Positions 1,340-19,765 of a stretch of 64,000 bases of DNA are shown piece after piece. Origin of the DNA: Flavobacteriales bacterium (lineage in GTDB: Bacteria > Bacteroidota > Bacteroidia > Flavobacteriales_F > PHOS-HE28); assembly GCA_016712535.1 (NCBI GenBank), contig JADJQW010000004.1, positions 38,756 through 102,755 of the forward strand, in the 5' to 3' direction. The position numbers and the translations under genes are program-made. How positions within the stretch are numbered: the first letter of the stretch is position 1; the number at the start of each line of letters is the position of its first letter. The notes beneath the pieces are model-generated. The model ran no database searches. It had not been told where the DNA came from and saw only the letters and a program-made list of their open reading frames with translations.

Positions 1340-1369
1340 TCCAGTCCAGTATCCTCACAATCACATACG

Positions 1370-1732: not shown

Positions 1733-1737
1733 ACACA

Positions 1738-3537: not shown

Positions 3538-3540
3538 GCC

Positions 3541-4788
3541 TCAACCCGCGCTGAACAAGTCGGGCTCCGCCAACTTGTAGCTCTTCTTGCGCCCCACAGG
3601 CGGTTCCACCTTGTTCAGGTGTACTAAGTGCTCGAGCAGCTTGTCGATGCGCTCGGTGGTCATACCGAGGTGCTTGGCGAGGGCCTTGTCCGTCATGGGT
3701 GTGGTCAGGGCTTTGAGCACGGCTTCCATGTCATCGGTCTCGGAATGTGCCGTGGCTGTTCCGTTGCTCTTCACTGGCGCTGCTTTCTTGGGCTTCTCGT
3801 AAGCCACCGGTGGTTCGTGCACTTCGGCCGGTTGCCCCGCGAACAATTCGTGCGCGGTTAGCGAACCGCGTTCCAGCTCCTCCATGCGCAAAGCATGCGG
3901 GTCCGCATCGGGTAGCACCAATGCACCACGCTCCACCAAGGCCCGGTTTCCCGAGCGCAGGTCGGCCTGGTGCTTTACCCACACGGGCACCCACTTCTTC
4001 TTCAGGTCTTCGGTGGCACCGGCCCATGTGCCGCCTTTGCCGTTATCGGAGCACACCACCACGGCCGCGCGGCTGAGACAGTAGACATATTTATTGCGCG
4101 ACATGGCGTTCGCCCCACTGAAGCCCGATTCGGGGTGGAAGGGACAGAGCAGCACGATGTCGCTGCGTTGGATGGCATCGCGGTACTTGTGGCTGGTAGC
4201 GGTCTTCAACAAGCTGTCGGCCACCACGCCGATCACGGTGCCGTTCGCTTCGATAGCACCGCGCATGGAAGCTTCGTCCACGCCACGGGCACCGCCCGAT
4301 ACGATGGTCCAACCTTGTTGCGCGGCTGAATGGCCCAATTGCCGAGCGAAGTGGAGATCATCTTCCGCCGCATTGCGCGAGCCGATCACCGCGAGGGCTT
4401 TCGTGTCGAGCTTCTTGCGGTCGCCTGCGCCATAGAAGATTGGCGGCGACTGGTCGCCTAATCGTTCATGTAGCAGCTTGGGGTAATCAGCCGATGAGCG
4501 CGTGATGACCCATAGACCCGCACGCTGCCATTTCTCCAGAAGCAGGCCCACTTGGAAACCCCGGTCGAGCAAGGGAAGGAGCCGTTCCAACGTAACGGCC
4601 TTGTCCTGGAACGTTGCGAGCGTATGCTTGGGATCGCCCACGAGCAGGTCGCTGGCCTTCATGCCTTGCGCGCTCAACCATGCAGCCAAGCGCGACCACT
4701 CGCCCGGTGCGAGCGGATGCACGGATCCCCCACCGGGCAGGTGCGCGGTGAGCAGCAGGGTCACATGGTCGTCCGGTCGTAGGTCCAT
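3541..4788 (-). CDS. DprA/Smf-like DNA-processing protein with C-terminal winged-helix region (ShosA-like)
   Basis: DprA Rossmann core motifs (ALAVIGSRNAAEDDLHFARQLG, WTIVSGGARGVDEASMRGAIEANGTVIGVVADSL). The ATG lies 3 nt downstream of the stop of the helicase-PRTase gene on the same strand, so this looks like an operon. Confidence 0.8.
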   Translation of the reverse strand: MDLRPDDHVTLLLTAHLPGGGSVHPLAPGEWSRLAAWLSAQGMKASDLLVGDPKHTLATFQDKAVTLERLLPLLDRGFQVGLLLEKWQRAGLWVITRSSADYPKLLHERLGDQSPPIFYGAGDRKKLDTKALAVIGSRNAAEDDLHFARQLGHSAAQQGWTIVSGGARGVDEASMRGAIEANGTVIGVVADSLLKTATSHKYRDAIQRSDIVLLCPFHPESGFSGANAMSRNKYVYCLSRAAVVVCSDNGKGGTWAGATEDLKKKWVPVWVKHQADLRSGNRALVERGALVLPDADPHALRMEELERGSLTAHELFAGQPAEVHEPPVAYEKPKKAAPVKSNGTATAHSETDDMEAVLKALTTPMTDKALAKHLGMTTERIDKLLEHLVHLNKVEPPVGRKKSYKLAEPDLFSAG

Positions 4789-4791
4789 GGG

Positions 4792-6889
4792 TCAGGCGTG
4801 CGAAGTACTGGCAAGCGCCACGGGATACACCAAGTTACTTCCGGCTTGGCGCAGTTGCGCGGCGATGATGGCAAAGGTCCAACCGGAATCGACCGCATCG
4901 TCCACCAGGAGGACAGGACCTTCCGGCAAAGGCGTGTTGATGGCGAAGGCGCCTTCCAGATTGGTGCATTGGTGGTGCTTGTTCTGCATAAGCTTCTGCG
5001 GCTCGTTGGTCTTGGTCTTCGACACGACCTGCCTGAATGGGATGCCGAGGCGTACGGCAAGTCGTTGGGCGAAGTCGGGCACCAAGTGCGGGTGGTTCAA
5101 TGAAGGTACACAGGTGAGCCATTCCGGAAACGGCTCTGGTCGCCAACGCTGGGTGATCATCTCGGTCATAGCATCCACGAGGTCGTCCTCAAACCGGTTG
5201 GCGTGCTTCTGTGCGGCCACCAGCTTTCCCCAGCCGGCGTCGCCCCAGCGACAGAGCACACGGCCCAACTCTGGTCGCAGGTGCGGCAGGAGTTTGCCCT
5301 TCTCCGATAGCCCGGTCAAGGTGCCGGGCGGCACACGGGTCGGGCATTTCAACTCGAACTCAGCATGCTTCAGGAACAAGGCGGCCTTGGAAATGGTGGT
5401 GGCATCAAGCTCGGTCCGGAAATGCTTGCTGAGGCAATTGGAGCAGCGGCCGCACGAGGTCACGCCAGTGTCGTCCAATGCGGCTTGCAGAAAGTTCATC
5501 AAGCAGCCCTTGTGTTCCAGGTACAAGTGGACCTGTTCCCATTCGCGCTTGCGTTGTGCGGTGAGCCGTTCGATTCGTTCGGTATCCAGCTTGAACGGAA
5601 CGGCGGTGCGTTTCCAGTTGAAGCCTTCCTGCACCACTGGTGCGGGCTGCTCCATCGCGAGGAACTTCAGCGCACGTTCGATCTGGCCGTAACGCAAGTT
5701 GATCACCTGTTCGATCTGCCATTGGGCCATGGCGTCGACCTTCTCCAGTAGGGGCGAGAATTCGCGCAACGGTGCTGGCGGCCGGAAAGGCGTTCTCCTG
5801 GAAGTAGGCGTGTATCTCTTCATCCTCGTCACCGGCCAGCAGTATCCCGTAGGCCTTGTCAATGGCTCGCCCGGCGCGGCCCACCTGCTGGTAGTAGGTG
5901 ATGATGGATGAGGGTGCTTGGTAGTGGATGACGAAACCGAGGTCGGGTTTGTCGAAGCCCATGCCCAAAGCCGTGGTAGCCACCAGCGCTTTGAGCGTCC
6001 CGTTCAGGAGCGCGTCCTCCAGCTGCGCACGGCGCGTGTTGGTATCCGCATCGTCCGTGGCGGCGATTCCCGCATGATAGGCTTCGGCTGTGATGCCGCA
6101 TTGTTGCAACCACTTCGCAACGCGTTCGGCGTCTTTCGTGGTGAGCGTGTAAATGATCCCGGAGCCCGGTAGCTTGGGCAGGTAGTGCGCGAGCCAGGCC
6201 AGCCGCGAAGCTTGGTCCGGCAGGCGGAGTGCATCAAGTCCGAGGCTTGTCCGCACCAGGGTGCCCCGTTCGATGGTGATATCCCCGAGTTGGTCTTGCA
6301 GGTCCTTGATCACCCGATCGTTGGCCGTAGCCGTGGTGCCCAGAACGGGGAGGTTGCCGGGCAGCCGTTTGAGGATGGAAACGATGCGTCGATAGTCCGG
6401 CCGGAAATCATGCCCCCAATCGCTGATGCAATGCGCTTCATCCACCACGAGCATGCCGATGCGCGCCGCGATGGGCAGCAGCACTTCATCCACGAAGCGT
6501 TGGTTCGCCAACCGTTCCGGGCTTATCAGGATCGCGTCCACCTCGTTCGCAAGCACTGCGGTGATCACGGCATCATGTTCTTCCTTGTTGGCACTGTTGA
6601 TCGTTACGGCCTTTATCCCCATGCGCTCCGCAGCGAGCAACTGGTTGCGCATCAACGAAAGCAGGGGACTGATGATAAGGGTGGGTCCAGCACCTTTCTC
6701 CCGCAACAGTTTCGCCCCGATGAAATAGACCGAGCTCTTGCCCCAACCCGTGCGCTGTACGACCAGCAGGCGCTTGCGATCGCGCACAAGCGCGACGATG
6801 GCTTCCAACTGGCCATCGCGGAATTCCGCGGTCGGCGTACCGACGGACTTTCGCAACAGTTGAAGTGCTTCGTCCTCGATGGTGGTCAT
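4792..6889 (-). pseudogene. RecQ-family helicase fused to a ComF-type phosphoribosyltransferase domain, interrupted by one apparent frameshift near 5780
   Basis: The N-terminal ORF (5405-6889) has RecQ motifs: TGWGKS, VVDEAHCISDWGHDFRPDY, TTATA and QQVGRAGR. It loses sense after ENAFP. The overlapping ORF (4792-5862) resumes sense at PAPLREFSPLLEK. It carries a Cys cluster (SCGRCSNC) and a PRTase end (NLEGAFAI ... VLLVDDAVDSGWT). Confidence 0.8.
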
Positions 6890-6951
6890 GAGAGCAAGAT
6901 AGCCGCCGTCTTTGGCTTGTTGTGCCGATCTTGTCGCTCGAATAACGGCCC

Positions 6952-7020
6952 ATGACCTCCCCCGCCATCGTCAACAAAGTCTGGAACTTCTGCCACACCC
7001 TGCGCGATGATGGCGTGGGC
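6952..7020 (+). repeat. Direct repeat copy A: first 69 nt of hsdM (codons 1-23), one mismatch
   Basis: atgacctcccccgccatcgtcaacaaagtctggaacttctgccacaccctgcgcgatgatggcgtgggc matches 14564-14632 apart from two differences (a>c at 6961 in codon 4, c>t at 7011 in codon 20). It opens a 30-codon ORF that stops at 7042-7044. Confidence 0.9.
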
Positions 7021-7044
7021 CTTGGTCGCGACCTCGGATGCTAG

Positions 7045-7092
7045 AAGTCAGTGATGGCGCAGAAGATCAAGGGGAATTATCAGGAGACATAA
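7045..7092 (+). pseudogene. 3-prime remnant (about 15 codons plus stop) of a second GmrSD-like gene
   Basis: The in-frame translation KSVMAQKIKGNYQET* aligns with the end of the intact gene at 3490-3537 (KVLMAKKIRGYYEGL*). By hand alignment about 30 of 36 core nucleotides are identical, with the stop codon at the equivalent position. Confidence 0.5.
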
Positions 7093-7094
7093 GA

Positions 7095-10000
7095 ATGCAA
7101 GGCACTCCAATGGGACATAGCATCACCGCCTTTTCCGGATCGTGCCTCCTTGGATCGATGTTGGTACTAGGGTGCACCGCACCCAAGCAGAGCCTGTACA
7201 GCAGGTACCTCACCGAGGGCAGGCTGGATCTGGCGGAAGCCCAAGCGGACACGACCTATGCCGCGCATTACTCCGAGCATAGATCAAGTTCGCTGCCCGC
7301 ATTCCAACGCGACAGCATTGCCGGCATCCAGTTCTACTACGATGCGGACAGGTACCGGGGGTGCATGGCTTTTGCGAAACACGAGGCTGCGGCCGATCGT
7401 GCCCGGCAACTGCTGGCCAATAGCCTTGGCAAGAACGATCCATACTACCTGGATGCGGTCATGGAGTGCGCCTACGCCCGACTCTTGCAAGGGCGCCGGG
7501 AAGAAGGGTTGGAGCTGGCCAAGGAAGTGAAGACCAAATTGTTGGCGGATCCCACGTTGGGGCGCGACAGGGTCGGCCTGTCGGACCTCTTCACCTTCTA
7601 CATGCAGGCGCAAGATGAAGCCACCGTGAAAGAGGTCGTTCGTCGTGGGCTCGCATACTACAACCCGGCGTATCGTACCGTGCCCGATACCGAAGGCAAG
7701 GCCCTCCTGGGCGCCCCGGAACTGGGGGCTTTCGACCGGGTCACCGACCTGGGCGCATACTCCCGCTTTCTCAACCACGCTGCCCTGTACAACTGGACGG
7801 TACTTGATCCATTCTGGTGCGAGCACTTCTACAAGTTCGATCGTGCCTTTGCCAAATGGTACAGTTCCACCGTTCGGGATGAGAACGTCGCGGACATCGC
7901 TTACGCGCATGCCATCGCCGGCCTTGGCAAATCTTCCGCCGCTCTGGAACTGGATAAGCGTGCGTACCTGGCCCTTGGCAAGCGCTATAAGGCGAGCAAC
8001 GTTGATTATGCCATCGGCGCAACGAATTATGCGAGCCACTATCTGGACTATGCGACGAATAATTGCGTCGCCATGCCCTATGCCTACCTCGATTCCATCT
8101 ACTCGGTCGATTGTCCGAAGATGAACGGGAGGACGAACGAAGAAAGAATGCGTTACATACAGTGCTCATGCGGGCAAGCCTTGTTGCGCACCAGTGCAGG
8201 GGAACCGGATTCCGCGCTCTCCACCTTGCGCAAGGCCGAGGTAGCTTACCACTTGATGGGCATGCGCGGTCGCACGCCGGAATCTTACGGTGGCATGTAC
8301 GCGGCGTACACGGCCACATGGTTCGAATACTGGCTTTCGACCGGCCACTATCAGCGGTGCGATTCGCTGTTGAACGTAGCCGAGCGGATACCGCTCACCT
8401 GGCGAATCATGCGTCCCAAGCTGGCTTACATGCGGGGCAAGTTGCAACTGGCGCAGGGCGATCCTGAAGCAGCAGCACGGACCCTTGCCTCCCATCGCAC
8501 GGTAACGAACACTTATCGCAATGAGGGTCTTGCAGCCTTTTCGTCGCGGAACACCCGGGACCTTTTGGGGGCCTATGAAAGTGCCGATGCGTTGGAATTG
8601 ACCGCATTGTTGGCACTGCCGGGCAAGGAGCAACAGCTCCTGTCCATTCTGGACAGCAGGAAACTGAAGGTGGCCAGCGCACAGATCCAAGCGGCACACG
8701 ATAAGCGGATGGGCTTCACGGATGAGGTCTATGATGAAGCATATGCTGACTGGCACCGCACCAAGAAGGAGATCGGTCGGATCATGACCGACAGGAGCGC
8801 TACCGCCTCCATGCTCCAACGCGCGCGCTCGCTGGAGGACACCCTCAGCGCCCAAGAGGCACTGCTCTCCCTCCTCTACCGGGAATGGATGAAGGACGTT
8901 CGGGATCAGCCTGGTTATGTAGACCGGTTCACGGTGGAAGCAGCCTTGAATCCCAAGACCGCGGTGATCGATGCACATCGCGTCCACCTGTTCGATGCCG
9001 GGCTGACCGCCTATGAACCGGCTTACTTGCTCATGGTACGCCGGAACACGGGCGTACCCACAGTCATCCGCGTTAATGATGCCGAGCGCATCGACTCCCT
9101 TATTGCCGTTGTGAATGAGCGGCACACGCAAGGCAAGGATGCCCCGGAAGCCATCCAAGCGTTGAGCGATGCGCTGGTAGCGCCCCTGAGCGCGGCCTTG
9201 GGAAAGACATCCTTGGTGTATGTATGTGGCGATGGTGCTTTGGGTCTGCTCAATTGGTCCTACCTCTGGGAAGGCTCGAAACGCTTCTGTGAGGATCGAA
9301 GCATACAGCACGTACATGGCATGCACGCGCTGCGCTACAAGGAGGTCACCGGCTATTTCGATTACGTGAGGGAGGCTGCGTTCTTCGGCGCACCAACGTA
9401 CTATTCAAGCAATGCGTCCCGCGAGGCGAATGTGACCAATGCCGCACGCATTTCGACCGCACAGGGCGAGGTGCGGGAATTCACCGGTAAGGACGGAGTG
9501 AAGGCACTGCCACATACGCAACCCGAGATAGAAGCCTCAGCTCGTATCGTGAAGGACGCGCCTCTTGTAGCCATGAACGAAAGGGCGGTAAAGACCTTCC
9601 TCGGGGTTGATGCAACGGAAGCGAACGTGCGGTCCCTTGGCAAAGTGAACCTGTTGCACATTGCCACACACGGCTTCTTCGAGCAGAATGAGGACGAGCT
9701 CATGAGCATGTACCGCTTGAATGATTCGCTCTCCTCGTTCAGCCGCGACCCCCTATTGCGATCAGGTTTGTTGCTTGCAGGCAGCGGTGATTACCTCGCG
9801 AACGGAACCCGTTCTGCTGCGCTTGATGATGGTTTGCTGAGCGCGGCCGAGATCGCTGATATGGATCTGTCCAAGACGGAGCTGGTGGTCCTGAGCGCCT
9901 GCCAGTCCGGCCAAGGCACCGTGGCCACATCGGACGGAATTGATGGGCTGCAGAGTGCGCTGTTCATCGTCGGCGCGAAAGCGGTGATGGTATCCTATTG

Positions 10001-10172
10001 GAAGGTGGATGATAAATTCACCACCATGTTCATGCAGGAGTTCTATCGGCGATGGAGCGGCAAGGAACGCCATGCGTTCGAGGCGCTGCGCAGCACGCAG
10101 CGGCACTTCGCCGCGATGCCGGAATACGCTTCCCCCCGCTATTGGGCTTCCTTCAATATCGTGGCCCGATGA
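7095..10172 (+). CDS. CHAT-domain (caspase-like) protease with long helical/TPR-like N-terminal region and lipoprotein-type signal peptide
   Basis: C-terminal CHAT dyad context: VNLLHIATHGFF (His) and ELVVLSACQSGQG (Cys). The N-terminus MQGTPMGHSITAFSGSCLLGSMLVLGC ends in a lipobox-like VLGC. An in-frame alternative start exists at 7038, but it would put an acidic extension in front of the signal. Confidence 0.8.
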   Translation: MQGTPMGHSITAFSGSCLLGSMLVLGCTAPKQSLYSRYLTEGRLDLAEAQADTTYAAHYSEHRSSSLPAFQRDSIAGIQFYYDADRYRGCMAFAKHEAAADRARQLLANSLGKNDPYYLDAVMECAYARLLQGRREEGLELAKEVKTKLLADPTLGRDRVGLSDLFTFYMQAQDEATVKEVVRRGLAYYNPAYRTVPDTEGKALLGAPELGAFDRVTDLGAYSRFLNHAALYNWTVLDPFWCEHFYKFDRAFAKWYSSTVRDENVADIAYAHAIAGLGKSSAALELDKRAYLALGKRYKASNVDYAIGATNYASHYLDYATNNCVAMPYAYLDSIYSVDCPKMNGRTNEERMRYIQCSCGQALLRTSAGEPDSALSTLRKAEVAYHLMGMRGRTPESYGGMYAAYTATWFEYWLSTGHYQRCDSLLNVAERIPLTWRIMRPKLAYMRGKLQLAQGDPEAAARTLASHRTVTNTYRNEGLAAFSSRNTRDLLGAYESADALELTALLALPGKEQQLLSILDSRKLKVASAQIQAAHDKRMGFTDEVYDEAYADWHRTKKEIGRIMTDRSATASMLQRARSLEDTLSAQEALLSLLYREWMKDVRDQPGYVDRFTVEAALNPKTAVIDAHRVHLFDAGLTAYEPAYLLMVRRNTGVPTVIRVNDAERIDSLIAVVNERHTQGKDAPEAIQALSDALVAPLSAALGKTSLVYVCGDGALGLLNWSYLWEGSKRFCEDRSIQHVHGMHALRYKEVTGYFDYVREAAFFGAPTYYSSNASREANVTNAARISTAQGEVREFTGKDGVKALPHTQPEIEASARIVKDAPLVAMNERAVKTFLGVDATEANVRSLGKVNLLHIATHGFFEQNEDELMSMYRLNDSLSSFSRDPLLRSGLLLAGSGDYLANGTRSAALDDGLLSAAEIADMDLSKTELVVLSACQSGQGTVATSDGIDGLQSALFIVGAKAVMVSYWKVDDKFTTMFMQEFYRRWSGKERHAFEALRSTQRHFAAMPEYASPRYWASFNIVAR

Positions 10173-11035
10173 ACGCCCGCACAGTTGGCAGGACATCCCT
10201 TCGCTCGTTGAATGCCCTAGGGCAATTGCAGCGGATCGGGTTGTGCATGGCCGTATTCCTCCTTCCGTGGACGGCGTCTGCCCAGGTCGAAGCGGCGCGG
10301 GTTGAGCTACCGCCTCCATTCACACGGGCACAGGAGAAAGCGGTGGAGCTCCGCATAGTTCAAGACGGTGCTACTTCAGAGACCTCCATTTTGCATGCGT
10401 TGCGGACGGCTCTCGGCAAGGACTTACCCCGACAGGCGGCGATCACATTGGTCGCCAAGGATGGAGTGCAACCTTTCGTCCTTGATCGTGTGGACCGGGT
10501 CAAACCTGGTAAGGGAGTGCAGTACACCGTGGTCCGAGGGGATAGTCAGTTGAAGTTCTCTCGTCCTGAGCAGTTGAATGTCTTCTGGAGCGACAGCTTG
10601 GTCGTGGTCGATTCCTTGGTTTTGGACTTTGCGGGACTACGTGGTGCTGGGCCGGGGCAGTTGTATATCACCGTGCAGAACGATGAGCAGATGGTGATGC
10701 CCTCCATCAGGAAGCGAAAGAGTGACCCTGCCCTGCATGTGCTCCGGGATCCTTGTTCCTCCTCGGGTCCTGGTGAACAGGACACAACCTGCGTGCGCAA
10801 CATTCGCCTGACCAGCAGCACAGAGCCAAGGCTGAATGGTTCCGCTCGTTTCATCTTCCTTAGCGCTTACGACCGCACACGGTTGGTCGCCTTTGCCACC
10901 GCGATCAATGAGGCTTCCGGGTTGGACCGGGATGCGCTGGTCGACCGGGTAGAAGCCTTCACCAAGACATACTATGGTCCTCCCATCCGCAGTGATGTTG
11001 AGCGTTTGCTGATAGGTGCAGGTCTTATCCATTGA
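10169..11035 (+). CDS. Secreted hypothetical protein (288 aa)
   Basis: The ATG overlaps the CHAT stop (ATGA at 10169-10172). Signal-peptide-like N-terminus (RIGLCMAVFLLPWTASAQ). No known motif recognised. Confidence 0.55.
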   Translation: MNARTVGRTSLRSLNALGQLQRIGLCMAVFLLPWTASAQVEAARVELPPPFTRAQEKAVELRIVQDGATSETSILHALRTALGKDLPRQAAITLVAKDGVQPFVLDRVDRVKPGKGVQYTVVRGDSQLKFSRPEQLNVFWSDSLVVVDSLVLDFAGLRGAGPGQLYITVQNDEQMVMPSIRKRKSDPALHVLRDPCSSSGPGEQDTTCVRNIRLTSSTEPRLNGSARFIFLSAYDRTRLVAFATAINEASGLDRDALVDRVEAFTKTYYGPPIRSDVERLLIGAGLIH

Positions 11036-12528
11036 GCGTGGAAAAGCTGATCCACTTCCTTGGGTTCTTCCTGATCGTCGGCGTCGTCCTCATCGGGCTG
11101 GCTGGTTTCATCCGGCGGTCACAGCGGAATGCGATAACGTTCACATTAGTGTGGTCTTTGGCCCTGACCACGATCGTAGTGTATTTGCAGTCGTTCCTGC
11201 CGCTGCGGTTCGGTGAGCAGATCAGTTCCTTGGAGTTCGGTGGATTTGTATTGGAAGGCATACACGATTCGCGTTCGAAGGCTGAGAAGTTCCTTGAGCG
11301 CAATTGCACGCTGATCGATGTATCCCAGGACCTGCGATTGATACCAGCGCCCAACCAGATCGACAGCGGCGCATCCGTTGCTGTTACCGATCGGGAGAAG
11401 CTCGCTTCGTTCTTGGAGTACCTGGCGCCTGACACGGCCTTGTTCGACATGGTCATCGTCGATGTGCTTTTCGACATTCCTACAGCGCACGACAAGCCCT
11501 TACAGGCGGCACTAATTGACTTGGCCAAGAAGGGAAAGTTGGCTTTGGCGCACGACGAGCAACTGTGCCGTGATGTATCCTTCTACCACAACGATGAACT
11601 CATCGGCACCTTTGGAGAAGTGGGGGAAAGGGAACAGGATGGCCTCTATTACAAGCATACACTGCTTCGGCGTTCGGTCAAGGGCGATAGGTTGTTGTCG
11701 CTGAGCCTGCCTTACCGCGCGTACACACGCATGAACAAGGTGGAGCGCATCGACCGTTTCAGTGGGCTGTTGGGTTCTGCCCGGGAGCATGGGCCACATG
11801 TGGACCGGTTCATTCGGACCTGGTTCAATCCGATACTACTGGGAGGCACCCTGCCAGAATCAGAAGGCCTTCTGAAGAGGCTGGGGCATGAACTAGGCTT
11901 CGGAAGCGACACCTATTCGCTATCGCATCAGCACGAACTGCAGGCTTTGCGAGGTCTGAACGCCGCCACGCCTCTCGGTCGTTGCACCAACGAGATCATG
12001 GAGGATGAAGGGGCACCATTCCTGCGCGCGATGCTCAAGAAGCGCATGGAAGAATCAGGCCCTCACGTGATCGTCATTGGCAATTTCCTCGATGGTGAAC
12101 GCGACGTCCACCAAACGGCGCATGGAGCCATGCACGGTTCCGCTATCGTCATCGGGGTTCTCCATGAATTGTTGGAAGGAGGGCACCGAGCCTCTTGGGG
12201 CTTCCTGTTGGTTGTTTGGGCCTGTCTTGCGGGTATCACATGGGCGCTGCTTAAGCAATGCAAGACGAATAGCGATCAAAGATCCGTTTCTCATCCCGCC
12301 CCAAGGAGGAGGATGCTCGCGACCATCGGCCACCTTCTATTCGTGGAAGAGAAGCACTACTGGTTCCTGTTCTTGGCCTTTGTCTTGGTGGAGATCTTGT
12401 TCCTGCGCATCGTGAACCTGCTGTCCTTGGTCCTGGTCTTCGCCATCATGGAGGTCGTGTTCCGCGCTATGCTTCAGCCTATCAGTTCATCCGATCAAGT
12501 GAGTACATCGAACAAGTCGACACCATGA
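11032..12528 (+). CDS. Membrane protein with CHASE2-like topology (N-terminal TM, about 350-aa external domain, C-terminal TM cluster)
   Basis: The TTG start overlaps the upstream stop (TTGA). N-terminal TM is LIHFLGFFLIVGVVLIGLAGFI. The segment LFDMVIVDVLFDIPTAHDKPLQAALIDLAKKGKLALA resembles the conserved CHASE2 core. C-terminal TMs are WGFLLVVWACLAGITWALL and YWFLFLAFVLVEILFLRIVNLLSLVLVFAIM. Confidence 0.55.
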   Translation: MSVEKLIHFLGFFLIVGVVLIGLAGFIRRSQRNAITFTLVWSLALTTIVVYLQSFLPLRFGEQISSLEFGGFVLEGIHDSRSKAEKFLERNCTLIDVSQDLRLIPAPNQIDSGASVAVTDREKLASFLEYLAPDTALFDMVIVDVLFDIPTAHDKPLQAALIDLAKKGKLALAHDEQLCRDVSFYHNDELIGTFGEVGEREQDGLYYKHTLLRRSVKGDRLLSLSLPYRAYTRMNKVERIDRFSGLLGSAREHGPHVDRFIRTWFNPILLGGTLPESEGLLKRLGHELGFGSDTYSLSHQHELQALRGLNAATPLGRCTNEIMEDEGAPFLRAMLKKRMEESGPHVIVIGNFLDGERDVHQTAHGAMHGSAIVIGVLHELLEGGHRASWGFLLVVWACLAGITWALLKQCKTNSDQRSVSHPAPRRRMLATIGHLLFVEEKHYWFLFLAFVLVEILFLRIVNLLSLVLVFAIMEVVFRAMLQPISSSDQVSTSNKSTP

Positions 12529-12598
12529 CCTCCACCGCCATCGTCAACAAAGTCTGGAACTTCTGCCACACCCTGCGCGATGATGGCGTGGGCTACGG
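12525..12598 (+). repeat. Direct repeat copy B: first 74 nt of hsdM, one mismatch
   Basis: Identical to 14564-14637 except gat/gac in codon 20. Its ATGA supplies the stop codon of the CHASE2-like gene. It opens a 26-codon ORF that stops at 12603-12605. Confidence 0.9.
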
Positions 12599-12607
12599 CC
12601 GCTGACT

Positions 12608-12922
12608 ATGCCCAAGCGCACCGAACACCGTCGAGACCCAAGTGATGTGGAGATCACGCGTTTCGAGCTGATGCGCATTTTCGATGGCGACGAGGAGTGG
12701 CTGCGCACGCTGGAGCACAATTTCTTCTGCGGCACCTGCCATGTGCCGAACCGCCGCCTGATCAATTACCGGGTGATGGTGAACGATCTGTTCGACATCG
12801 CCCTTCAAGGCACCTGCAATGGTTGCCACACCATCGCCGCCCGCTATGTGGAGACCGGCGAGGATCCAGAGAAGGTGAAGCGGATAAAGGCGGTGCTGCG
12901 GGAACGGAAGAAGGCCCGCTGA
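12608..12922 (+). CDS. Hypothetical Cys-rich protein (104 aa; CGTC ... CNGC)
   Basis: The ATG lies 2 nt after the stop of the truncated hsdM leader ORF. Two CxxC pairs suggest a zinc-ribbon-like fold. No family recognised. Confidence 0.4.
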   Translation: MPKRTEHRRDPSDVEITRFELMRIFDGDEEWLRTLEHNFFCGTCHVPNRRLINYRVMVNDLFDIALQGTCNGCHTIAARYVETGEDPEKVKRIKAVLRERKKAR

Positions 12923-12932
12923 ACGACGGTCG

Positions 12933-12995
12933 GCACTATACTGGACATGCAGCAAATGCCGGATCCGCACATTTATGGCACGCGCAGTATAGTGC
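12933..12995. terminator. Inverted repeat between convergent genes (11-bp arms gcactatactg / cagtatagtgc)
   Basis: Perfect 11-bp arms at 12933-12943 and 12985-12995, lying between the 3-prime ends of 12608-12922 (+) and 13002-13448 (-). The loop is long and there is no T-tract, so terminator function is only a guess. Confidence 0.25.
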
Positions 12996-13001
12996 GGTGC
13001 C

Positions 13002-13448
13002 CTACTTACCCTCCAGTGGGAGTTCCGGCGCAAAGGCCTTCACATCCATCAGCGGAAGCAATGCGCCGTGCAAGGGCGTGCCCTTGAACACGCCGAACAT
13101 GATGCCGCGCGTGGTGCTGATGGCAATGCCGTTGAGCGTGGCCAGCAGATCGGGCGGGATCACCGCGATGCCCTGCTCGTTCTTGTAGACGAGCGTGTTG
13201 AAGTCGGCCACGGAGAAGGATACCGTTGCACTGAGCTTACCCACGGGCACGGCGCTCTTCTGGGTAACGATGTTAACGGTCACGTTGCACAGCACCCAGC
13301 CGTTCTGCTCATGCACGGCGTTCTCAAGGTTCACGCTGAAGTTCAATCCCGAGGCCGCTTCATCCTGTGGAGGCACCGGATGGATGTGCGACTCGTTCAG
13401 CTGAAGGAGGTTCAGGCTGTACTTGTAGGGAGGCTTGGCGTCGCTCAT
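13002..13448 (-). CDS. SecB-like putative chaperone (148 aa)
   Basis: The start ATG overlaps the stop of the HTH gene (TGATG). By eye the sequence can be threaded on E. coli SecB. For example, YSLNLLQLNESHIHPVPP aligns with FQIQRIYTKDISFEAPNAP, NVTVNIVT with RVTVTA, and LLPLMDVKAF with LAPVNFDAL. Confidence 0.45.
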   Translation of the reverse strand: MSDAKPPYKYSLNLLQLNESHIHPVPPQDEAASGLNFSVNLENAVHEQNGWVLCNVTVNIVTQKSAVPVGKLSATVSFSVADFNTLVYKNEQGIAVIPPDLLATLNGIAISTTRGIMFGVFKGTPLHGALLPLMDVKAFAPELPLEGK

Positions 13449-13924
13449 CAGGCAAAGCAGGGTTGCTTCTGTCCATAGTGGTACAGTGGTTCGCTCACCA
13501 TGGGCACAGCCCCGGCAGCGTTGGAGGAACGGCTCACGAAAGCCATTTCGCCCATGGCCACAGTACGGCGCTCTTGCGAGAGGGCAGGTGCTTGCACGCT
13601 GACCGTAGTGGAGAACACCACCCTCTCTTCCTCGGGGCGCAGCAGGTCGGCAACGCTCATACCCAGCGCATGGCCGATGTCCACTAGTGTATCCAAGGTG
13701 AAGTTGTGCCCGCCGCTCAGCCACTTGGTGACCATGGAGGAACCCTTCAAGCCACACGCCTCGGCCAGTTCCTTCTTCTGCATGCGCAGTTCTTCGAGGC
13801 GATCTGCGATGCGCACGGCTGCACGCATCTTGATCGACACCTTCTCCTGCTGCTGGGGCGTGATGCGTGCCAGCAGTTCGTCCAGGATGGCGCTGCGATA
13901 AGGCTCAGGTGTCTTGCTCATCAT
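13448..13924 (-). CDS. XRE-family helix-turn-helix protein with about 60-aa low-complexity C-terminal extension (putative antitoxin)
   Basis: HTH_XRE-like core (LRMQKKELAEACGLKGSSMVTKWLSGGHNFTLDTLVDIGHALGMSVADLL). Overlaps the upstream gene by 20 nt. Confidence 0.75.
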   Translation of the reverse strand: MMSKTPEPYRSAILDELLARITPQQQEKVSIKMRAAVRIADRLEELRMQKKELAEACGLKGSSMVTKWLSGGHNFTLDTLVDIGHALGMSVADLLRPEEERVVFSTTVSVQAPALSQERRTVAMGEMAFVSRSSNAAGAVPMVSEPLYHYGQKQPCFA

Positions 13925-14405
13925 CCAATTCTAATGTGAGGTCACCGGTCCATTCCATCTCGTCGGATGTCCAACCGATCTCACGGTTCTGCATTTTCTC
14001 TTTCATGGCCTTGGAGATGGCGATCATCTCTTCGGCTGCTTGTTTCAACTTCGGGTCATCCTGCCAGGCACGCACCAACTTCGGACCACCTGCCCCCAGC
14101 AGGAGTATCGAGTTCCCGTATCGTATGCCATAGGCGCGTAAGGTGGCGGTCACATCATCGGAGACAGCTACGACCAAGTCGCCCGGCAAGCCTTCGCCAA
14201 TTCGGAAAAGGTCCGTGCGCAAGCCGGTCTGCTGACCCATGGTGCGCAGCTTGGCGACCAGATTCTCGGTCTCTTTGGGGTATTGGGTTGCGCATTCCTT
14301 CAGCAAGGTGTCGAAGAGGCTGGCACTTCCATCGGTCCTCACAAGCGTGTAAACCGTTGCCCGTCTCCCCGAAAGTTGAACGTACTTGACGATCCGATAG
14401 TTCAT
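13905..14405 (-). CDS. Putative toxin component (Gp49/HigB-like pattern, weak)
   Basis: First gene of a three-gene minus-strand operon. The segment LRAYGIRYGNSILLLGAGGPK resembles the conserved R-x-Y ... ivLL-g-f-KK strand of Gp49/RelE-superfamily toxins. The assignment is tentative. Confidence 0.4.
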   Translation of the reverse strand: MNYRIVKYVQLSGRRATVYTLVRTDGSASLFDTLLKECATQYPKETENLVAKLRTMGQQTGLRTDLFRIGEGLPGDLVVAVSDDVTATLRAYGIRYGNSILLLGAGGPKLVRAWQDDPKLKQAAEEMIAISKAMKEKMQNREIGWTSDEMEWTGDLTLELDDEQDT

Positions 14406-14563
14406 CTAAAGCCGAATTTTGGCCCCAGAAGCGAACCGTCCTCGCCAACGATTTCACCCTTAGGTGCATTTTGCGGGTTCAAACCTACAACATTTGACTT
14501 GGTCGGCCCAAGCTTATAATCCGTCGATTTTCCCGTCAAGGTCATAATCCCTAAGCTAGCAGA

Positions 14564-14637
14564 ATGACCTCCACCGCCATCGTCAACAAAGTCTGGAACT
14601 TCTGCCACACCCTGCGCGATGACGGCGTGGGCTACGG
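14564..14637 (+). repeat. Direct repeat copy C (the functional 5-prime end of hsdM)
   Basis: Reference copy for repeats A (6952-7020) and B (12525-12598). Confidence 0.9.
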
Positions 14638-16042
14638 TGATTACCTCGAGCAGCTCACCTATTTGCTGTTCCTGAAGATGGCTGATGAGTACAGCAAGCC
14701 GCCCTACAAGCGCGACACCAAAGTGCCCACCGGCTTCGACTGGCAGAGTCTGCGCGGCAAGAGCGGCGCCGAGCTGGAGAGCCATTACGTGAAGCTGCTG
14801 GACGAGCTGGGCAAGAAGACCGGCATGCTGGGCGACATCTTCGTGAAGGCCCAGAACAAGATCACCGACCCGGCCAAGCTCCACAAGCTGATCCAGCTGA
14901 TCGACGGCGAGAGCTGGGTGCTGCTGGGCGCCGATGTGAAGGGCGATATCTACGAGGGACTGTTGCAGAAGAACGCCGAGGACACGAAGAGCGGTGCCGG
15001 GCAATACTTCACGCCGCGTCCGCTGATCCGGGCCATGGTGGAGTGCGTGCGTCCACTGCCCGAGAAGACCATCGCCGACCCGGCCTGCGGCACCGGCGGC
15101 TTTTTCCTCGCGGCCTACGACCACCTGACCAACCCGAAGAACTTCAAGCTGAACAAGGACCAGCTGAAGTTCCTGAAGTACGAGACCTTCCACGGCTGGG
15201 AGATCGTCACCAGCACGGCGCGCCTGTGCCTGATGAACCTCTTCCTGCACAACGTGGGCGACATGGACCACGAGGCGGACATCACCCGCGATGACAGCTT
15301 GCGCGCGGCGCCTGCGAAGAAGTTCGACTACGTGCTCACCAACCCGCCCTTCGGCAAGAAGAGCAGCGTGACGGTGACTAACGACGAGGGCACGGAAAAG
15401 CGCGAGGCCCTCACCTACAACCGCCAGGACTTCTGGGCCACCACGAGCAACAAGCAGCTCAACTTCGTGCAGCACATCTGCAGCATCTTGAAACCGGGCG
15501 GCACCGCCGCCGTGGTGCTGCCGGACAATGTGCTCTTCGAAGGTGGCGCCGGCGAAACCGTGCGCAAGCAATTGCTGCGCACCACGGAGCTGCACACCAT
15601 CCTGCGTCTGCCCACAGGCCTCTTCTATGCACAGGGCGTGAAGGCGAACGTGCTCTTCTTCGAGAACAAGCCCGGCGCCAAGACCCCCTGGACCAAGGAC
15701 GTATGGATCTACGACTACCGCACCAACATCAAGCACACGCTGAAGACCGACCCGCTCCAGTTCGAAGACCTCACGGAATTCATCAAGTGCTACAACCCTG
15801 CAGACCGTCACAAGCGCAAGGCGACATGGAGCGACAAGTCACCGGAAGGCCGCTGGCGCAAGTACAGCTACGACGAGATCATGACCCGCGATAAGGCCAG
15901 CCTGGACATCTTCTGGCTGAAGGACGACAGCTTGGAGGACAGTGCCAACCTGCCTGAGCCGGGGGTGCTGGCGGCGGAGATCGTGCAAGACCTAGAGGCG
16001 GCGTTGAAGGAGTTCAGGGCAATCGCAGATGACCTCCACTAG
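14564..16042 (+). CDS. hsdM: Type I restriction-modification system DNA methyltransferase subunit M
   Basis: HsdM N-terminal domain (IVNKVWNFCHTLRDDGVGYGDYLEQLTYLLFLKM). SAM motif I (IADPACGTGGFF). Catalytic motif IV (VLTNPPFGKK). Confidence 0.93.
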   Translation: MTSTAIVNKVWNFCHTLRDDGVGYGDYLEQLTYLLFLKMADEYSKPPYKRDTKVPTGFDWQSLRGKSGAELESHYVKLLDELGKKTGMLGDIFVKAQNKITDPAKLHKLIQLIDGESWVLLGADVKGDIYEGLLQKNAEDTKSGAGQYFTPRPLIRAMVECVRPLPEKTIADPACGTGGFFLAAYDHLTNPKNFKLNKDQLKFLKYETFHGWEIVTSTARLCLMNLFLHNVGDMDHEADITRDDSLRAAPAKKFDYVLTNPPFGKKSSVTVTNDEGTEKREALTYNRQDFWATTSNKQLNFVQHICSILKPGGTAAVVLPDNVLFEGGAGETVRKQLLRTTELHTILRLPTGLFYAQGVKANVLFFENKPGAKTPWTKDVWIYDYRTNIKHTLKTDPLQFEDLTEFIKCYNPADRHKRKATWSDKSPEGRWRKYSYDEIMTRDKASLDIFWLKDDSLEDSANLPEPGVLAAEIVQDLEAALKEFRAIADDLH

Positions 16043-16095
16043 TGATAGCACACTCCCAGTGTTCGCGGCTTTGGCATATTGTCATGCGCGCTACT

Positions 16096-16842
16096 TCAGC
16101 CTTCAGCCCCGCCGAACATCTGCCCCATCCCCCGCTTCGCACGGCGTCCGAGCACTTCTGATGTTTCCACCACCTTCCCCTTCACCAGCCACGAGACCCC
16201 GAAGGCAAGCAGCATGACGGTCTCCGGCCAGAAGATGCTTTGCTCCAGGACGAAGCCCGCGATGCCTGCCCAGATCAGGCAGCACGCGATCACGATCCCG
16301 CATGCGCGGTGCAAGGCATTGCGCCGCTGCTTCGATGGGTCCAGCTCTTTGTCGGTGATGGGAAAGAGGAAGTACGACATGTAGGCGAAGCTGATGAAGA
16401 GCGTGGCCGCGCCGATGAAGTGGGCGGTGCCCATGTAGTCTTCCCACCAGGTCAGCGGCGGGTAGTGGCCCTCGACCTCGGTAGGGAAGAAGGCGAGCAC
16501 GAGCGCGCCGATTCCCGCGATGCGCGCGGACAGCCGGTCCTTCCAGCCCGTGGGGTTGTCGTAGCCATCGTAGGTGATCAGGAAGATCCCGAGCGCGACC
16601 ACGATCCCGATGAAGACCGCTTCGGCCCCGGTGTGGTAGTATCCGCTGATACTCTCAAGCAGTGCCCAGCGATCGGCTGCGCCATTCACCGGCCGCCAGC
16701 CTGCGGCAATGAACACCATCAGCGGCAGGGCAATCCCGAGGATGCCGAGCAGTTGGCGGTGCGCATTGCTGGAGAGGTCGTCTTCATTCTCCTCGGGGAT
16801 GAAATCGCTCCGTAGTCGTCGGGTGCTCCTGATCTGTTCCAT
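16096..16842 (-). CDS. Polytopic integral membrane protein (DUF998-like impression only)
   Basis: ATG start and six or so hydrophobic helices (LGILGIALPLMVFIAAGW, AVFIGIVVALGIFLITY, IAGIGALVLAFF, FIGAATLFISFAYMSYFLF, ACGIVIACCLIWAGIAGFVL). Confidence 0.6.
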   Translation of the reverse strand: MEQIRSTRRLRSDFIPEENEDDLSSNAHRQLLGILGIALPLMVFIAAGWRPVNGAADRWALLESISGYYHTGAEAVFIGIVVALGIFLITYDGYDNPTGWKDRLSARIAGIGALVLAFFPTEVEGHYPPLTWWEDYMGTAHFIGAATLFISFAYMSYFLFPITDKELDPSKQRRNALHRACGIVIACCLIWAGIAGFVLEQSIFWPETVMLLAFGVSWLVKGKVVETSEVLGRRAKRGMGQMFGGAEG

Positions 16843-16866
16843 GGTGCGATGTCGGAGGTGCCTGCT

Positions 16867-18066
16867 TCAATCATCATCCCTCACCCCGTAGATCAACTTG
16901 AACTCCACGGGCTTGTGGTCGCTGTAGTAGGAGCCGTAGGTGCCCACATTGAAGTTGCCGGTGCCGGGATAGTCCCCGTCGTCGGGGTCCCATGTCGGCT
17001 CCATGAGGGCCACCAGGTCGAGTGGCACGAAGTGGTGCGGGTCGATGTCCGTGGCGGTGAATCGCGGTCGGTACATCACGTGGTCGAAGGGCTTGCCGGT
17101 GCGGGCCACGTTGGTGGCCAGGCAGGCGGCGTTGATGGATTGATAGCCGCTGGGCGTGGCATCCACGAGCTCGTCGCAGTCCTGGATGTTCATGTCGCCC
17201 ACGATCAGGTGGTCGGGCTCGCCGTTGGCGGCGTGCTCGGCGATGAAGGCGAGCTCATCGCGGCGCTGCTCGTCGGCGCCTTCGTCGGCGGCCAAGTGCA
17301 CGTTGGTCACCGCGAAGTCGAGCGTGCCATCGAGCGTGGCGAAGTGGAAGGTCCACGGCACGCGGTCGAAGGTGGGGTTGCCCACCAGCGGCTGGTCAAC
17401 GAAGCCGCTGGGCGCGTGCAGGTATTGCAGCACGTGCGGTTTATAGAAGGCCACGAAGTACTCGCTGGTGCTGCCGTTGGTGGTGTTGCTGCTGCGCCCG
17501 GTCTTGGCGCTGCTCAAGGCGTAAGCGAACCGGTAATCCTCCATGAGCTGGAAGAAGGTCCGGGCTTGTTGCGTGCCGCTGAGCATGTAGTCCGGGTACA
17601 CCAGGTCCATGGGTGCCGAGACCAGCTCCTGCACCAGCACCAGGTCGTAGTCCTTCAGCAGGTCCACCAGCGGCTGGTACTGCTTGTTATTGCCCTGCCC
17701 GATGAACTTGATGTTGAAGGAGCAGGCCTTGAGCGGCTTGGGCACGCCGGTGGCGATGGGGCCGCCCGGCGTCCCGGGGCCCGTGGGCGTGCCGCCGCCG
17801 CGCGCCCACAGGGGTGGTTCGGCATCGCGCAGCCGCACGCGGTTGCGGTACACGTAGCCGAGGCAATTGCCCGGCGCGCGCACGTGGTAATAGCCGTCGT
17901 GGTCGTCCTCGTCCTCCAGCACCAGCGTGTCGCCCGCCTGCGCATGGTAGCATTCTTCGGTGTCCGTGCTCGGCCCTTGGCGCACGTAGCTGCTTCGGCT
18001 CACGATGGCCACTTTCGCCGTGGCATCGAGCGCGAGCACGAGCAGGGGAAGGAGCAGCGCGCGCAT
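16867..18066 (-). CDS. Secreted endonuclease/exonuclease/phosphatase (EEP) family protein with N-terminal SH3b-like domain
   Basis: Signal peptide MRALLLPLLVLALDATA. SH3b-like segment YVRQGPSTDTEECYHAQAGDTLVLEDEDDHDGYYHV. EEP C-terminal motif YYSDHKPVEFKL and internal IVGDMN. Confidence 0.8.
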   Translation of the reverse strand: MRALLLPLLVLALDATAKVAIVSRSSYVRQGPSTDTEECYHAQAGDTLVLEDEDDHDGYYHVRAPGNCLGYVYRNRVRLRDAEPPLWARGGGTPTGPGTPGGPIATGVPKPLKACSFNIKFIGQGNNKQYQPLVDLLKDYDLVLVQELVSAPMDLVYPDYMLSGTQQARTFFQLMEDYRFAYALSSAKTGRSSNTTNGSTSEYFVAFYKPHVLQYLHAPSGFVDQPLVGNPTFDRVPWTFHFATLDGTLDFAVTNVHLAADEGADEQRRDELAFIAEHAANGEPDHLIVGDMNIQDCDELVDATPSGYQSINAACLATNVARTGKPFDHVMYRPRFTATDIDPHHFVPLDLVALMEPTWDPDDGDYPGTGNFNVGTYGSYYSDHKPVEFKLIYGVRDDD

Positions 18067-18070
18067 GGCC

Positions 18071-18550
18071 TCAGGGCTTGTTCTGCGCGGCGGCGCGGGT
18101 ACGGCTCGCCTCGCGGATGGCATCGATCTCCTTCTGCGCGGTGCTCTTGATGCCCATCCAATCGCTGAAGAGCTTGGCGGCGCCCTTGCTTCCGCCGGCG
18201 ATGATCATGGCCGTGATGAGCATGCCCATCAGGGTCATCTTGCTGTGGCTCACCGGCAGCAGGATGCTGAGCGCATCGAAGTCCCACCACCAGCACACAT
18301 AGAAGGATACGCCCAGGGCGATGAGCTCCTTGATGCCACGATTGCGGGGCTGCGCATCGGTGATGGTGCCTTGGTCGGCGCCACCCTCGTGCTTCACCGT
18401 ATAGGCCACGCGCTCGATGAAGGCGCGGCTCTCGAAGAGCAAGGCGAGGGCGCGCTCAATGAGCAAGGCCAATAGCAGGATGGCGAGGAGCACCTCGCTC
18501 ACACGCTCGAAATCGAGGAAGAAGAGGTTGGGGTCGACCTTGCTGTGCAT
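18071..18550 (-). CDS. Hypothetical membrane protein (159 aa)
   Basis: Its stop lies 4 nt upstream of the EEP gene start, suggesting an operon. Three hydrophobic segments are present. No motif recognised. Confidence 0.5.
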   Translation of the reverse strand: MHSKVDPNLFFLDFERVSEVLLAILLLALLIERALALLFESRAFIERVAYTVKHEGGADQGTITDAQPRNRGIKELIALGVSFYVCWWWDFDALSILLPVSHSKMTLMGMLITAMIIAGGSKGAAKLFSDWMGIKSTAQKEIDAIREASRTRAAAQNKP

Positions 18551-19734: not shown

Positions 19735-19765
19735 GCGGCAAATATCGCTGGCTCAAGGCCGAGCA

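Follow-up and report, generated by a model that had tools for sequence, protein, structure and literature searches.

Truncated hsdM starts as probable recombination scars of defence-cassette stacking in a Flavobacteriales Type I locus

Why should the start of one gene stand three times in a single locus? The question is raised by a 64 kb (64,000 nt) stretch of DNA from a Flavobacteriales bacterium, hereafter the window, whose positions are counted from its first letter. The first 69-75 nucleotides (nt) of hsdM, a gene of Type I restriction loci, occur there in three direct copies, each beginning at the ATG, at 6952, 12525 and 14564, and only the last of them opens an intact gene. We consider that the two truncated copies, here called heads, are recombination scars from the stacking of cassettes before hsdM, and that they double as homology anchors for cassette exchange. 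From comparison of sequences, we put the probability of this reading at roughly 60%.

Three hsdM starts in a mosaic of modules

Copy A (6952-7020), copy B (12525-12598/9) and copy C (from 14564) are 97-99% identical in pairs (A/C 67/69, B/C 73/74, A/B 68/69). An earlier, sequence-only reading of this DNA had placed three direct copies here with one or two substitutions each, and both points stand (against C, two of 69 positions are changed in A and one of 74 in B). A 44-nt core is invariant across the copies and unmatched elsewhere in the window, and the chance expectation from 100 shuffles is zero additional copies. The 60 nt 5' of the three copies are mutually unrelated (20-23% identity), also as claimed. 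Copy C is the working 5' end of hsdM, and copies A and B appear to be the leftover first 70-85 nt of former hsdM genes. The protein of the intact gene contains the Pfam families N6_Mtase (PF02384, 2e-69) and HsdM_N (PF12161, 4e-12), shares 83-94% amino-acid (aa) identity with Flavobacteriales homologues and has an N-terminus (MTSTAIVNKVWNF...) of the type seen in Flavobacteriales metagenome-assembled genomes (MAGs). On the 3' side of hsdM lie unrelated minus-strand genes, and the GC content rises.

Related hsdM loci, numbered with the prefix L, were obtained by a repeat-pattern search and by protein look-ups, and the window was compared with them by BLAST. A degenerate 41-nt repeat pattern gave 120 hsdM loci in reference genomes; in viral contigs the same pattern had one match only, with no sign of phage-borne arrays. 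Nt 1-69 of head A are 97.1% identical to copy C, 98.6% to hsdM of L037 and 95.7% to the head of L211, and weak similarity to hsdM extends to about nt 85 (an 85-nt repeat family, 88-89%). For head B the identities are 98.6% with copy C and 97.3% with full hsdM of L211.

The DNA that leads up to each copy (Table 1) leads to an intact hsdM in relatives. Window 3551-7020, with the PsyrTA genes, the intergenic region and head A, matches L037 1329-4797 at 93.6% identity, and L037 then continues into full hsdM; L127 also runs from the PsyrTA segment into full hsdM (82.9%). Window 6948-12598, with head A, the remnant behind it, the CHAT module and head B, matches L211 at 83.8%, and the CHASE2-like gene of L211 overlaps a full hsdM. 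Window 12607-15965 (orf104, the PDC-M64-like genes and hsdM) is contiguous in L012 at 88.7%, and window 13004-16026 (the PDC-M64-like genes and hsdM) matches L216 at 85.9%, with GmrSD directly before the block and no orf104. Since L037, L127 and L211 run into full hsdM, empty sites exist for both inserted cassettes. Judged from these alignments, the window is a mosaic of three modules, each of which would formerly have ended in its own intact hsdM, and each head with its upstream DNA is part of the module on its left. The stacked modules are PsyrTA (3541-7020), the GmrSD tail with the CHAT, 288-aa and CHASE2-like genes (7021-12598), and orf104 with the PDC-M64-like genes (12599-14563).

The same modules have other neighbours elsewhere. 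The order is PDC-M64-like genes, 75-nt head, PsyrTA and hsdM in L037, and PDC-M64-like genes, 69-nt head, ATPase cassette and hsdM in L131. The PDC-M64-like gene orf166 together with the intergenic region and the hsdM start leads to full hsdM in the window, L012 and L216; followed by a head instead, the same segment leads to PsyrTA in L037 and to the ATPase cassette in L131. The homology of this intergenic region is unbroken in both (window 13414-14637 against L037 60-1286, 81.5%; window 14388-14632 against L131 669-912, 77.6%, contiguous). The copies do delimit separable cassettes, as had been proposed, and the cassette content between them varies among related genomes.

Junctions, heads elsewhere and the slot before hsdM

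What joined the modules can be read best at junction A, where head A meets a decayed remnant of a GmrSD-like gene. Window 7052-7084 matches GmrSD 3496-3528 at 29 of 33 positions (score 50; shuffles 19 +/- 3.3, maximum 30). L211 keeps this junction better: hsdM runs from nt 1 to ~82 (...GGCTACGGCGACTACC) into GGGGAGGTGCGGAAGG...GGGACTTTGA, and the GmrSD tail after the head (L211 5977-6046) agrees with window 3462-3530 at 87%. A short sequence is common to both parents, GACTACCTGGAG in hsdM (codons 26-29) and GACTTCCTGGAG in GmrSD (window 3472-3483), identical at 11 of 12 nt, or at 12 of 13 nt where hsdM has GGCGAC; the 3' end of the window GmrSD contains CGACTTCCTGGAG at 3471-3483. Because the parents share these 11/12 nt, junction A must have arisen by a join of hsdM to GmrSD at short homology, with loss of the intervening DNA. 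As L211 shows, the original junction lay at about nt 82-87 of hsdM and has since decayed in the window. The earlier claim that the copies diverge after codon 23-25 therefore holds for copy B (74-75 nt) and falls short of the true junction in copy A.

Junction A also appears to have moved. It stands behind PsyrT in the window but behind a Fic gene in L211, and the 60 nt before head A are 80% identical to L037 and 36% to L211. The L037-like homology stops at 7020 and the L211-like homology begins at 6948, 4 nt before the ATG of head A; the overlap is confined to head A (6948-7020), and the homology switch thus sits inside it. Identity falls in a step at nt 69 of head A, from 96-99% before it to 60% with L211 over the next 74 nt, and the CHAT gene beyond is 84% identical. 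Since an equally old scar would be expected to decay evenly, the step fits a replacement of nt 1-69 from functional hsdM, and head A would then have undergone a crossover or gene conversion with functional hsdM sequence. Junction A thus combines a short sequence shared by the joined genes with a switch of the relatives' homology inside the repeat, as in a recombination scar. Cassette exchange by homologous recombination at the hsdM 5' end, one of three explanations between which the earlier reading did not choose, fits this overlap, the changing neighbours of the modules and the empty sites of L037, L127 and L211. Of a second, serial deletion in an array of hsdM-led modules, the deletion survives as the origin of junction A and the hsdM-led order does not, as the modules end in hsdM.

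On this evidence we propose the following route. Each new defence block placed before hsdM would have arrived with an upstream region and an hsdM 5' end of its own. A head would be left when a non-homologous or short-homology join, as seen at junction A, cut hsdM soon after its start. The resulting unit of head, cassette, intergenic region and hsdM 5' end would be homologous on both sides to any hsdM of the family, and RecA-type recombination could insert it, with the left crossover in the 70-85-nt head and the right one in hsdM. After such an insertion hsdM would remain intact, and the resident upstream region would now precede the incoming cassette, which may be expressed from it. The heads would then decay as neutral scars, while near-identical young ones could also serve as substrates for cassette deletion, the third of the earlier explanations. 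Both the RecA dependence of the crossovers and the order of events are what we infer from the junctions. The stacking would require no dedicated recombinase, and the earlier statement that no standard feature type explains the copies was too strong, as ordinary homologous recombination and short-homology joining suffice.

Heads are not peculiar to the window. Searches with the HsdM N-terminus against 209 loci, and with each gene's own first 150 nt against 204 full-hsdM loci, found truncated heads 5' of full hsdM in at least 11 other assemblies. They measure 34-219 nt, mostly 69-85 nt, and are in direct orientation from the ATG, except for one partial fragment. In Flavobacteriales-type loci they are 75 nt long in L037 and L130, 69 nt in L131, and ~82 nt in L211, which has a second head of 60 nt. 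The others are in a Pseudomonadota MAG (L113, ~73 nt), Thiohalomonas (L094, ~71 nt), Leptothrix (L035, the partial fragment, nt 43-69, ending at 69), Burkholderiales (L089, ~35 nt; L023, 219 nt) and metagenomes (L151, ~79 nt; L144, ~59 nt; L208, 43 nt). The inserts behind them measure 0.4-5.6 kb and, where annotated or recognisable, hold genes of defence or toxin-antitoxin type. Older heads have decayed (85.5% identity in L131 and 84.5% in L094), with amino-acid replacements (e.g. MTSTAIVNKVWNFRYTLGDVGVG in L131). A left-end motif, ACTGAAT, follows the leader stop in L037, L113 and L144 and not in the others, and we set it aside as unproven or chance.

In L023 (Burkholderiales MAG, 6094-6429) hsdM codons 1-73, the head listed above, and in L001 (Rhodoferax MAG) codons 1-40, are fused in frame to a tail of the form QDP(T/S)DEPAS.LLARI.AER. 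By eye only, the tail was read as HsdS-type and the 371-aa next gene of L023 as DUF1016-type. A second full hsdM follows in L023, and both fusions look like internal deletions.

The place of stacking is a slot just before hsdM. In 120 of 120 loci in which tblastn with three HsdS proteins detected hsdS, this gene lies 5' of hsdM on the same strand, never downstream, which rules out an hsdM-led operon order. In 28 loci the two genes adjoin; in 83 of the 120 an insertion of at least 1 kb separates them. The complete island of L213-L215 consists of housekeeping genes, hsdR, hsdS, four inserts (AbiEi and AbiEii among them), hsdM and again housekeeping genes; the order hsdR-hsdS-hsdM was seen in L132, L145, L147 and L213, and hsdM is the final gene, after the cassettes, in the complete islands examined. 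The sequence 5' of the hsdM ATG cannot be aligned among 17 Flavobacteriales-type loci (25% identity), while nt 6-125 are 88-99% identical. We do not take the conservation of nt 1-125 as proof of recombination, as it mostly reflects protein-level constraint. The slot has the conserved flanks and the variable, defence-enriched content of a defence hotspot among relatives: besides the modules of the window (PsyrTA, the CHAT trio and the PDC-M64-like genes) it holds Hachiman (HamA and a helicase) and M78/DUF4411 in L130, McrBC in L121, a ThsB-type TIR protein in L127, and AbiEi with AbiEii in L213. In L121 (GCA_963851765.1, 9739-11215), a frameshift near codon 85 of hsdM has led to an annotated protein of 404 aa that lacks the N-terminus.

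Several observations weigh against recombination scars as the whole explanation. Junction B has no homology overlap, since the L211-like homology ends at 12598 and the L012-like homology starts at 12607, and no donor with an identical junction was found among the loci compared; it could have arisen by illegitimate insertion or by deletion in a tandem intermediate. Most of the relatives' cassette boundaries are headless (L012, L127, L121, L122, L213 and L216), so heads document only some events. L130 and L131 cannot be counted as one junction, because their head-to-ATPase regions do not align. Third-position identity in hsdM is 0.87-0.88 over codons 1-42 and 0.76-0.79 elsewhere, a rise so modest that frequent gene conversion in the 5' end is not proven. 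The window yielded nothing to tblastn with the three HsdS queries, and the island extends past its left end; the window hsdM may lack partners locally, or they may lie to the left. Finally, the junctions cluster at nt 69-85 in 6-7 of ~10 apparently independent events, which plain homologous and illegitimate recombination does not predict. Longer repeats may recombine away fast and shorter ones recombine poorly, or the GC-rich, internally repetitive stretch GGCGTSGGCTACGGCGACTACCTGGAG may play a part. A dedicated activity behind the clustering, be it a recombinase or nickase acting in trans or something inherent in the Type I enzyme, seems improbable to us.

The clustering is an argument for regarding the hsdM 5' end as a true attachment site, at codons 20-29, at which a recombinase or nickase encoded elsewhere moves the cassettes, much as in integrons or Xer-dependent pdif modules, with the hsdM head in the role of attC or attI. 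Ends at nt 69-85 recur across lineages (75 and ~85 in Flavobacteriales, 69 in L035, ~71 in L094, ~73 in L113, ~79 in L151), the cassettes are small and without a recombinase, the heads are all direct, every cassette bears the repeat at its 3' side, and insertion is always beside the intact gene. If this were true, the hsdM start would make Type I loci of this family an integron-like platform for the capture of defence cassettes across phyla. Yet junction positions spread over 34-219 nt, the left ends of the cassettes have no common motif, no GTTRRRY-type core stands at the junction, and heads occur in low-GC lineages (L144, L208) in spite of a different nucleotide sequence at the site. The fusion of junction A to a GmrSD tail at a short shared sequence is moreover typical of illegitimate or short-homology joining. 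Pfam scans of the principal open reading frames (ORFs) of the window matched no integrase, recombinase or transposase family, the annotated flanks of L121-L131, L211 and L213-L216 contain no integrase, and no annotated or scanned gene of the relatives' inserts matched an integrase, transposase or recombinase family. We consider such a site improbable. A hairpin in the heads (nt 7-21/53-67), drawn by eye on the Flavobacteriales sequence only, was rejected as attC-like because its arms are absent from Proteobacteria-type hsdM. An Rfam scan of window 1-20000 with E up to 1, covering the repeats and the 12933-12995 hairpin, gave no match.

Another history would be decay in place, in which complete units, every one with a full hsdM, once stood in tandem and the heads are leftovers of internal deletions with no later role in recombination. 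Junction A is indeed a fusion of deletion type, and the GmrSD gene joined there must once have followed hsdM in the same orientation; L174 has hsdS-hsdM and then GmrSD 3 kb downstream; the 73-codon head of L023 and the GmrSD heads without restored GmrSD in L033, L211 and L122 also speak for it. Decay alone leaves junction A behind unrelated left neighbours in the window and L211 unexplained, and the contrast between nt 1-69 of head A and the equally old remnant beside it needs a later crossover or gene conversion. Among 204 loci, none has two full hsdM genes within 10 kb, and on balance we regard this history as unlikely. We think it less credible still that the heads are selected leader peptides or translational-coupling devices, which give downstream defence operons the expression signals of hsdM. 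The leader ORFs proposed earlier are present, 30 codons at 6952-7044 for A and 26 codons at 12525-12605 for B. The former overlaps the ATG at 7038 and stops 50 nt before the ATG at 7095, and the latter stops 2 nt before the orf104 ATG at 12608; copy B also supplies the stop of the CHASE2-like gene, the TGA within its ATGA, as had been noted. The leader stop lies near the next ATG in several other loci (L113, L144), and head A keeps the intergenic region that precedes full hsdM in L037. Elsewhere, however, head length and the distance to the next gene vary, the heads of L094 and L208 have no convincing ORF after them, and most cassettes of relatives are headless. Because equivalents in other loci decay in a neutral-like manner (84-86% nt identity, several amino-acid replacements), the heads and leader ORFs do not look like maintained coding or regulatory elements. 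As for a chimeric or collapsed assembly join at the repeat, short-read assemblies do break there, and an independent Logan contig (L210), identical to window 10179-12554, stops 30 nt into copy B, before junction B; read set SRR28981372 contains an identical CHASE2-like contig. The earlier reading had named such an artefact as its possible refutation, which was not borne out: an independent JGI metagenome contig (L211) contains junction A and the entire CHAT module, all three modules are collinear with independent assemblies across their heads, the copies are not identical, and analogous heads stand in many unrelated assemblies. We give an artefact almost no credence.

If the heads are recombination scars, they matter beyond this locus. 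Defence islands are known for rapid turnover of their genes, but clean homologous exchange leaves no trace, so the joining of blocks in them is usually invisible, and here traces survive. Heads of hsdM (and of GmrSD) and gene tails would show that blocks were stacked serially before an intact hsdM, that at least one joint formed at a 12-nt sequence common to two defence genes, and that junction A moved to a new neighbour by a crossover within only ~70-85 nt. This offers a testable, recombinase-free route by which Type I loci of this hsdM family may gather defence systems. A truncated hsdM start 5' of a full hsdM can serve as a search signature for cassette boundaries, and it points to new candidate defence genes, namely the trio of CHAT, 288-aa and CHASE2-like genes and orf104. 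The near-identical repeats also predict cassette loss by deletion between A, B and C in this genome.

Genes of the modules and the rest of the window

By PADLOC, the cassettes of the window are of defence type: PsyrTA, HEC-05/GmrSD and PDC-M64. Their coordinates and those of the neighbouring features are collected in Table 1.

Table 1 Features of the hsdM island in the window, from left to right
Feature	Position	Strand	Remarks
HsdR C-terminal part, Type I restriction subunit	5-1339	+	Runs off the left window end; Pfam T1RH-like_C (6e-126) and T1R_D3-like
orf120	1370-1732	+	No Pfam, PADLOC or NCBIfam match
GmrSD-type (DUF262) restriction enzyme gene	1738-3537	+	Conserved island anchor; Pfam GmrSD_N (5e-32); PADLOC HEC-05 (2e-30)
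PsyrA (DprA-like/SLOG), antitoxin partner of PsyrTA	3541-4788	-	PADLOC PsyrA (1e-127); Pfam DNA_processg_A, LDcluster4
PsyrT (RecQ-like helicase and phosphoribosyltransferase, PRTase)	4792-6889	-	Two ORFs
PsyrT-hsdM intergenic region	6890-6951	.	Directly 5' of intact hsdM in L037
Head A, truncated hsdM 5' end	6952-7036	+	Nt 1-69 intact, nt 70 to ~85 decayed
Decayed GmrSD-like 3' remnant	7037-7094	+	Left end of the CHAT module; in frame, ...VMAQKIKGNYQET and stop
CHAT-domain protease-like protein	7095-10172	+	Gene 1 of the CHAT module; Pfam CHAT (2e-51)
288-aa protein	10169-11035	+	Signal-peptide-like N-terminus; start overlaps the CHAT stop (ATGA)
CHASE2-like membrane protein	11032-12528	+	Final gene of the CHAT module; Pfam CHASE2 0.003, below cut-off
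Head B, truncated hsdM 5' end	12525-12599	+	74-75 nt
orf104	12608-12922	+	Small protein with CxxC pairs
Imperfect hairpin	12933-12995	.	63 nt, between the convergent orf104 and orf147
orf147, helix-turn-helix (HTH) protein, orf166	13002-14405	-	Three genes; HTH protein 13448-13924, orf166 13905-14405; candidate PDC-M64-like module
Intergenic region upstream of the real hsdM	14406-14563	.	Travels with the PDC-M64-like module
Intact hsdM	14564-16042	+	492 aa; copy C is its first 75 nt; right-hand end of the island

The HsdR fragment belongs to a different family from the HsdR (EcoEI_R_C) of the hsdR-hsdS-hsdM islands in L213-L215. The window GmrSD gene is 96% identical in nucleotides to that of L012 and 84% to those of L129 and L216, with homology beginning at the ATG; no exact database entry is on record for its protein or for the window HsdM. 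Heads of GmrSD itself (~40-274 nt, from the ATG) precede unrelated genes in other loci, with no restored full copy downstream: in L033 (reverse) at ~175-310, in L211 at 1779-1808 and 4003-4281, and in L122 at 7091-7144. In L063 (reverse, ~2600-2800), a GC-rich insert of ~200 nt breaks GmrSD after ~nt 98. The insert has terminal inverted repeats of 7 bp (GGGGTGT...ACACCCC) and resembles a miniature transposable element; the GmrSD head of L033 is truncated near the same position.

The window has the gene pair of a PsyrTA system, a RecQ-like/PRTase PsyrT adjoining a DprA-like PsyrA. Its PsyrT is split into overlapping ORFs by one extra C in a C-run near 5752-5754 (region 5750-5756), as aligned to L037, whereas L037 and L127 have intact orthologues of 698 aa, that of L037 matching PADLOC at 1e-291. 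Either the toxin gene is genuinely inactivated or the extra C is a sequencing error in a homopolymer. In the CHAT module, the CHAT protein shares 89% aa identity with its L211 orthologue and had no PADLOC match, and the 288-aa protein shares 77% and had no match in the family scans. The L211 orthologue of the CHASE2-like protein (78%) likewise overlaps an ATG, there that of full hsdM.

Homologues of orf104 are present in L012 (91% aa identity), L033 (79%), L127 and L128. It is missing from L216, in which GmrSD abuts the PDC-M64-like genes directly, and together with the hairpin after it orf104 behaves as a separable sub-module. In L129, at ~1810-1900, ~70 nt of the orf104 3' end survive as a gene-tail scar, with a 118-aa gene on one side and the ATPase cassette on the other. 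The hairpin has outer stems of ~10 bp and inner stems of 12 bp, with a consensus fold of -19.5 kcal/mol, and is kept in L118 (5798-5860) and L131 (~925-985); the L131 copy stands directly after the truncated hsdM head. It may act as a terminator in both directions or mark a further module boundary.

PADLOC assigned orf166 to PDC-M64B (5e-31) and the HTH protein, also matched by Pfam HTH_3, to PDC-M64C (2e-16), and the three-gene block is a candidate defence or toxin-antitoxin module. The block has hsdM as its neighbour in L012 and L216; in L037 and L131 the neighbour is a truncated head. Just before the start codon of the ATPase_2/DUF234 gene, L033 (reverse) and L131 share a palindrome, GTTAATATAATGGCCATTA(C/T)ATTAA, and a similar one stands ~200 nt farther upstream in L130. 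The palindrome may be an operator.

Outside the island, the window consists of unremarkable Bacteroidota chromosomal DNA that encodes PorP/SprF, SprB-repeat and housekeeping proteins. Between 23778 and 47219, PorP/SprF paralogues (23778-25121, 34463-35380 and 43982-45013) are interleaved with two giant ORFs, one of 3107 aa with SprB repeats and one of 2871 aa whose N-terminal 1000 aa have no Pfam match, and an OmpA-family protein follows the cluster. The arrangement suggests an adhesin locus of type IX secretion, as is typical of Bacteroidota.

Comparison with known systems

The locus resembles an integron in its ordered cassettes, which lack a recombinase of their own and have the same short repeat on their 3' side, in their entry beside a fixed anchor and in contents that vary among relatives. 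It differs in that the Pfam scans of the principal window ORFs gave no IntI, and in that the repeat consists of hsdM codons 1-25 and not of an attC hairpin with R''/R' cores. Integron attC sites carry RYYYAAC/GTTRRRY; here GGCTACGGC is followed by cassette DNA with no GTTRRRY core. The junction positions vary, the cassettes may carry several genes on either strand, and the junctions look like products of homologous and short-homology recombination.

Islands and integrative and conjugative elements that carry an integrase insert at gene ends, as in tandem islands at tRNA genes, dusA-specific islands and SXT in the 5' end of prfC. As in those elements, direct repeats of the target gene's end flank the inserts, the inserted DNA restores the gene, and serial insertions yield three or more repeats. 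The cassettes here have no integrase and no fixed crossover (heads of 69-85 and 74-75 nt in the window and 34-219 nt elsewhere), the blocks of 0.4-5.6 kb are not self-mobile, and one junction is a fusion of gene to gene at a short shared sequence.

A parallel in mechanism may be homology-facilitated illegitimate recombination, since hsdM homology on one side and an 11/12-nt join on the other bring foreign DNA in beside an anchor. The classical process replaces recipient DNA and does not duplicate the anchor, whereas here 70-85 nt of the anchor are duplicated and would later be reused as a second homology arm. A literature search for this process with anchor duplication gave nothing useful, and in the literature searched we found no earlier description of hsdM heads as cassette joints. 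Shufflons of hsdS are similar in that repeated fragments of a Type I gene in one locus act as recombination substrates. Theirs are inverted hsdS repeats, usually with a dedicated recombinase, and switch specificity; the fragments here are direct hsdM 5' ends that bound unrelated defence genes.

As a whole, the locus is one more of the defence hotspots already known from within Type I loci. Surveys of defence-island hotspots describe conserved bounding genes (PMC10121019, PMC10250203), and PrrC within EcoprrI is a defence gene embedded in a Type I operon (PMC12707154). The window shares with them variable defence systems between conserved Type I genes, with flanks conserved in close relatives. 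What it adds is the position of the slot, just 5' of hsdM and between hsdS and hsdM where hsdS is seen, with variable DNA that abuts the hsdM ATG, and surviving heads that would reveal how the blocks were joined.

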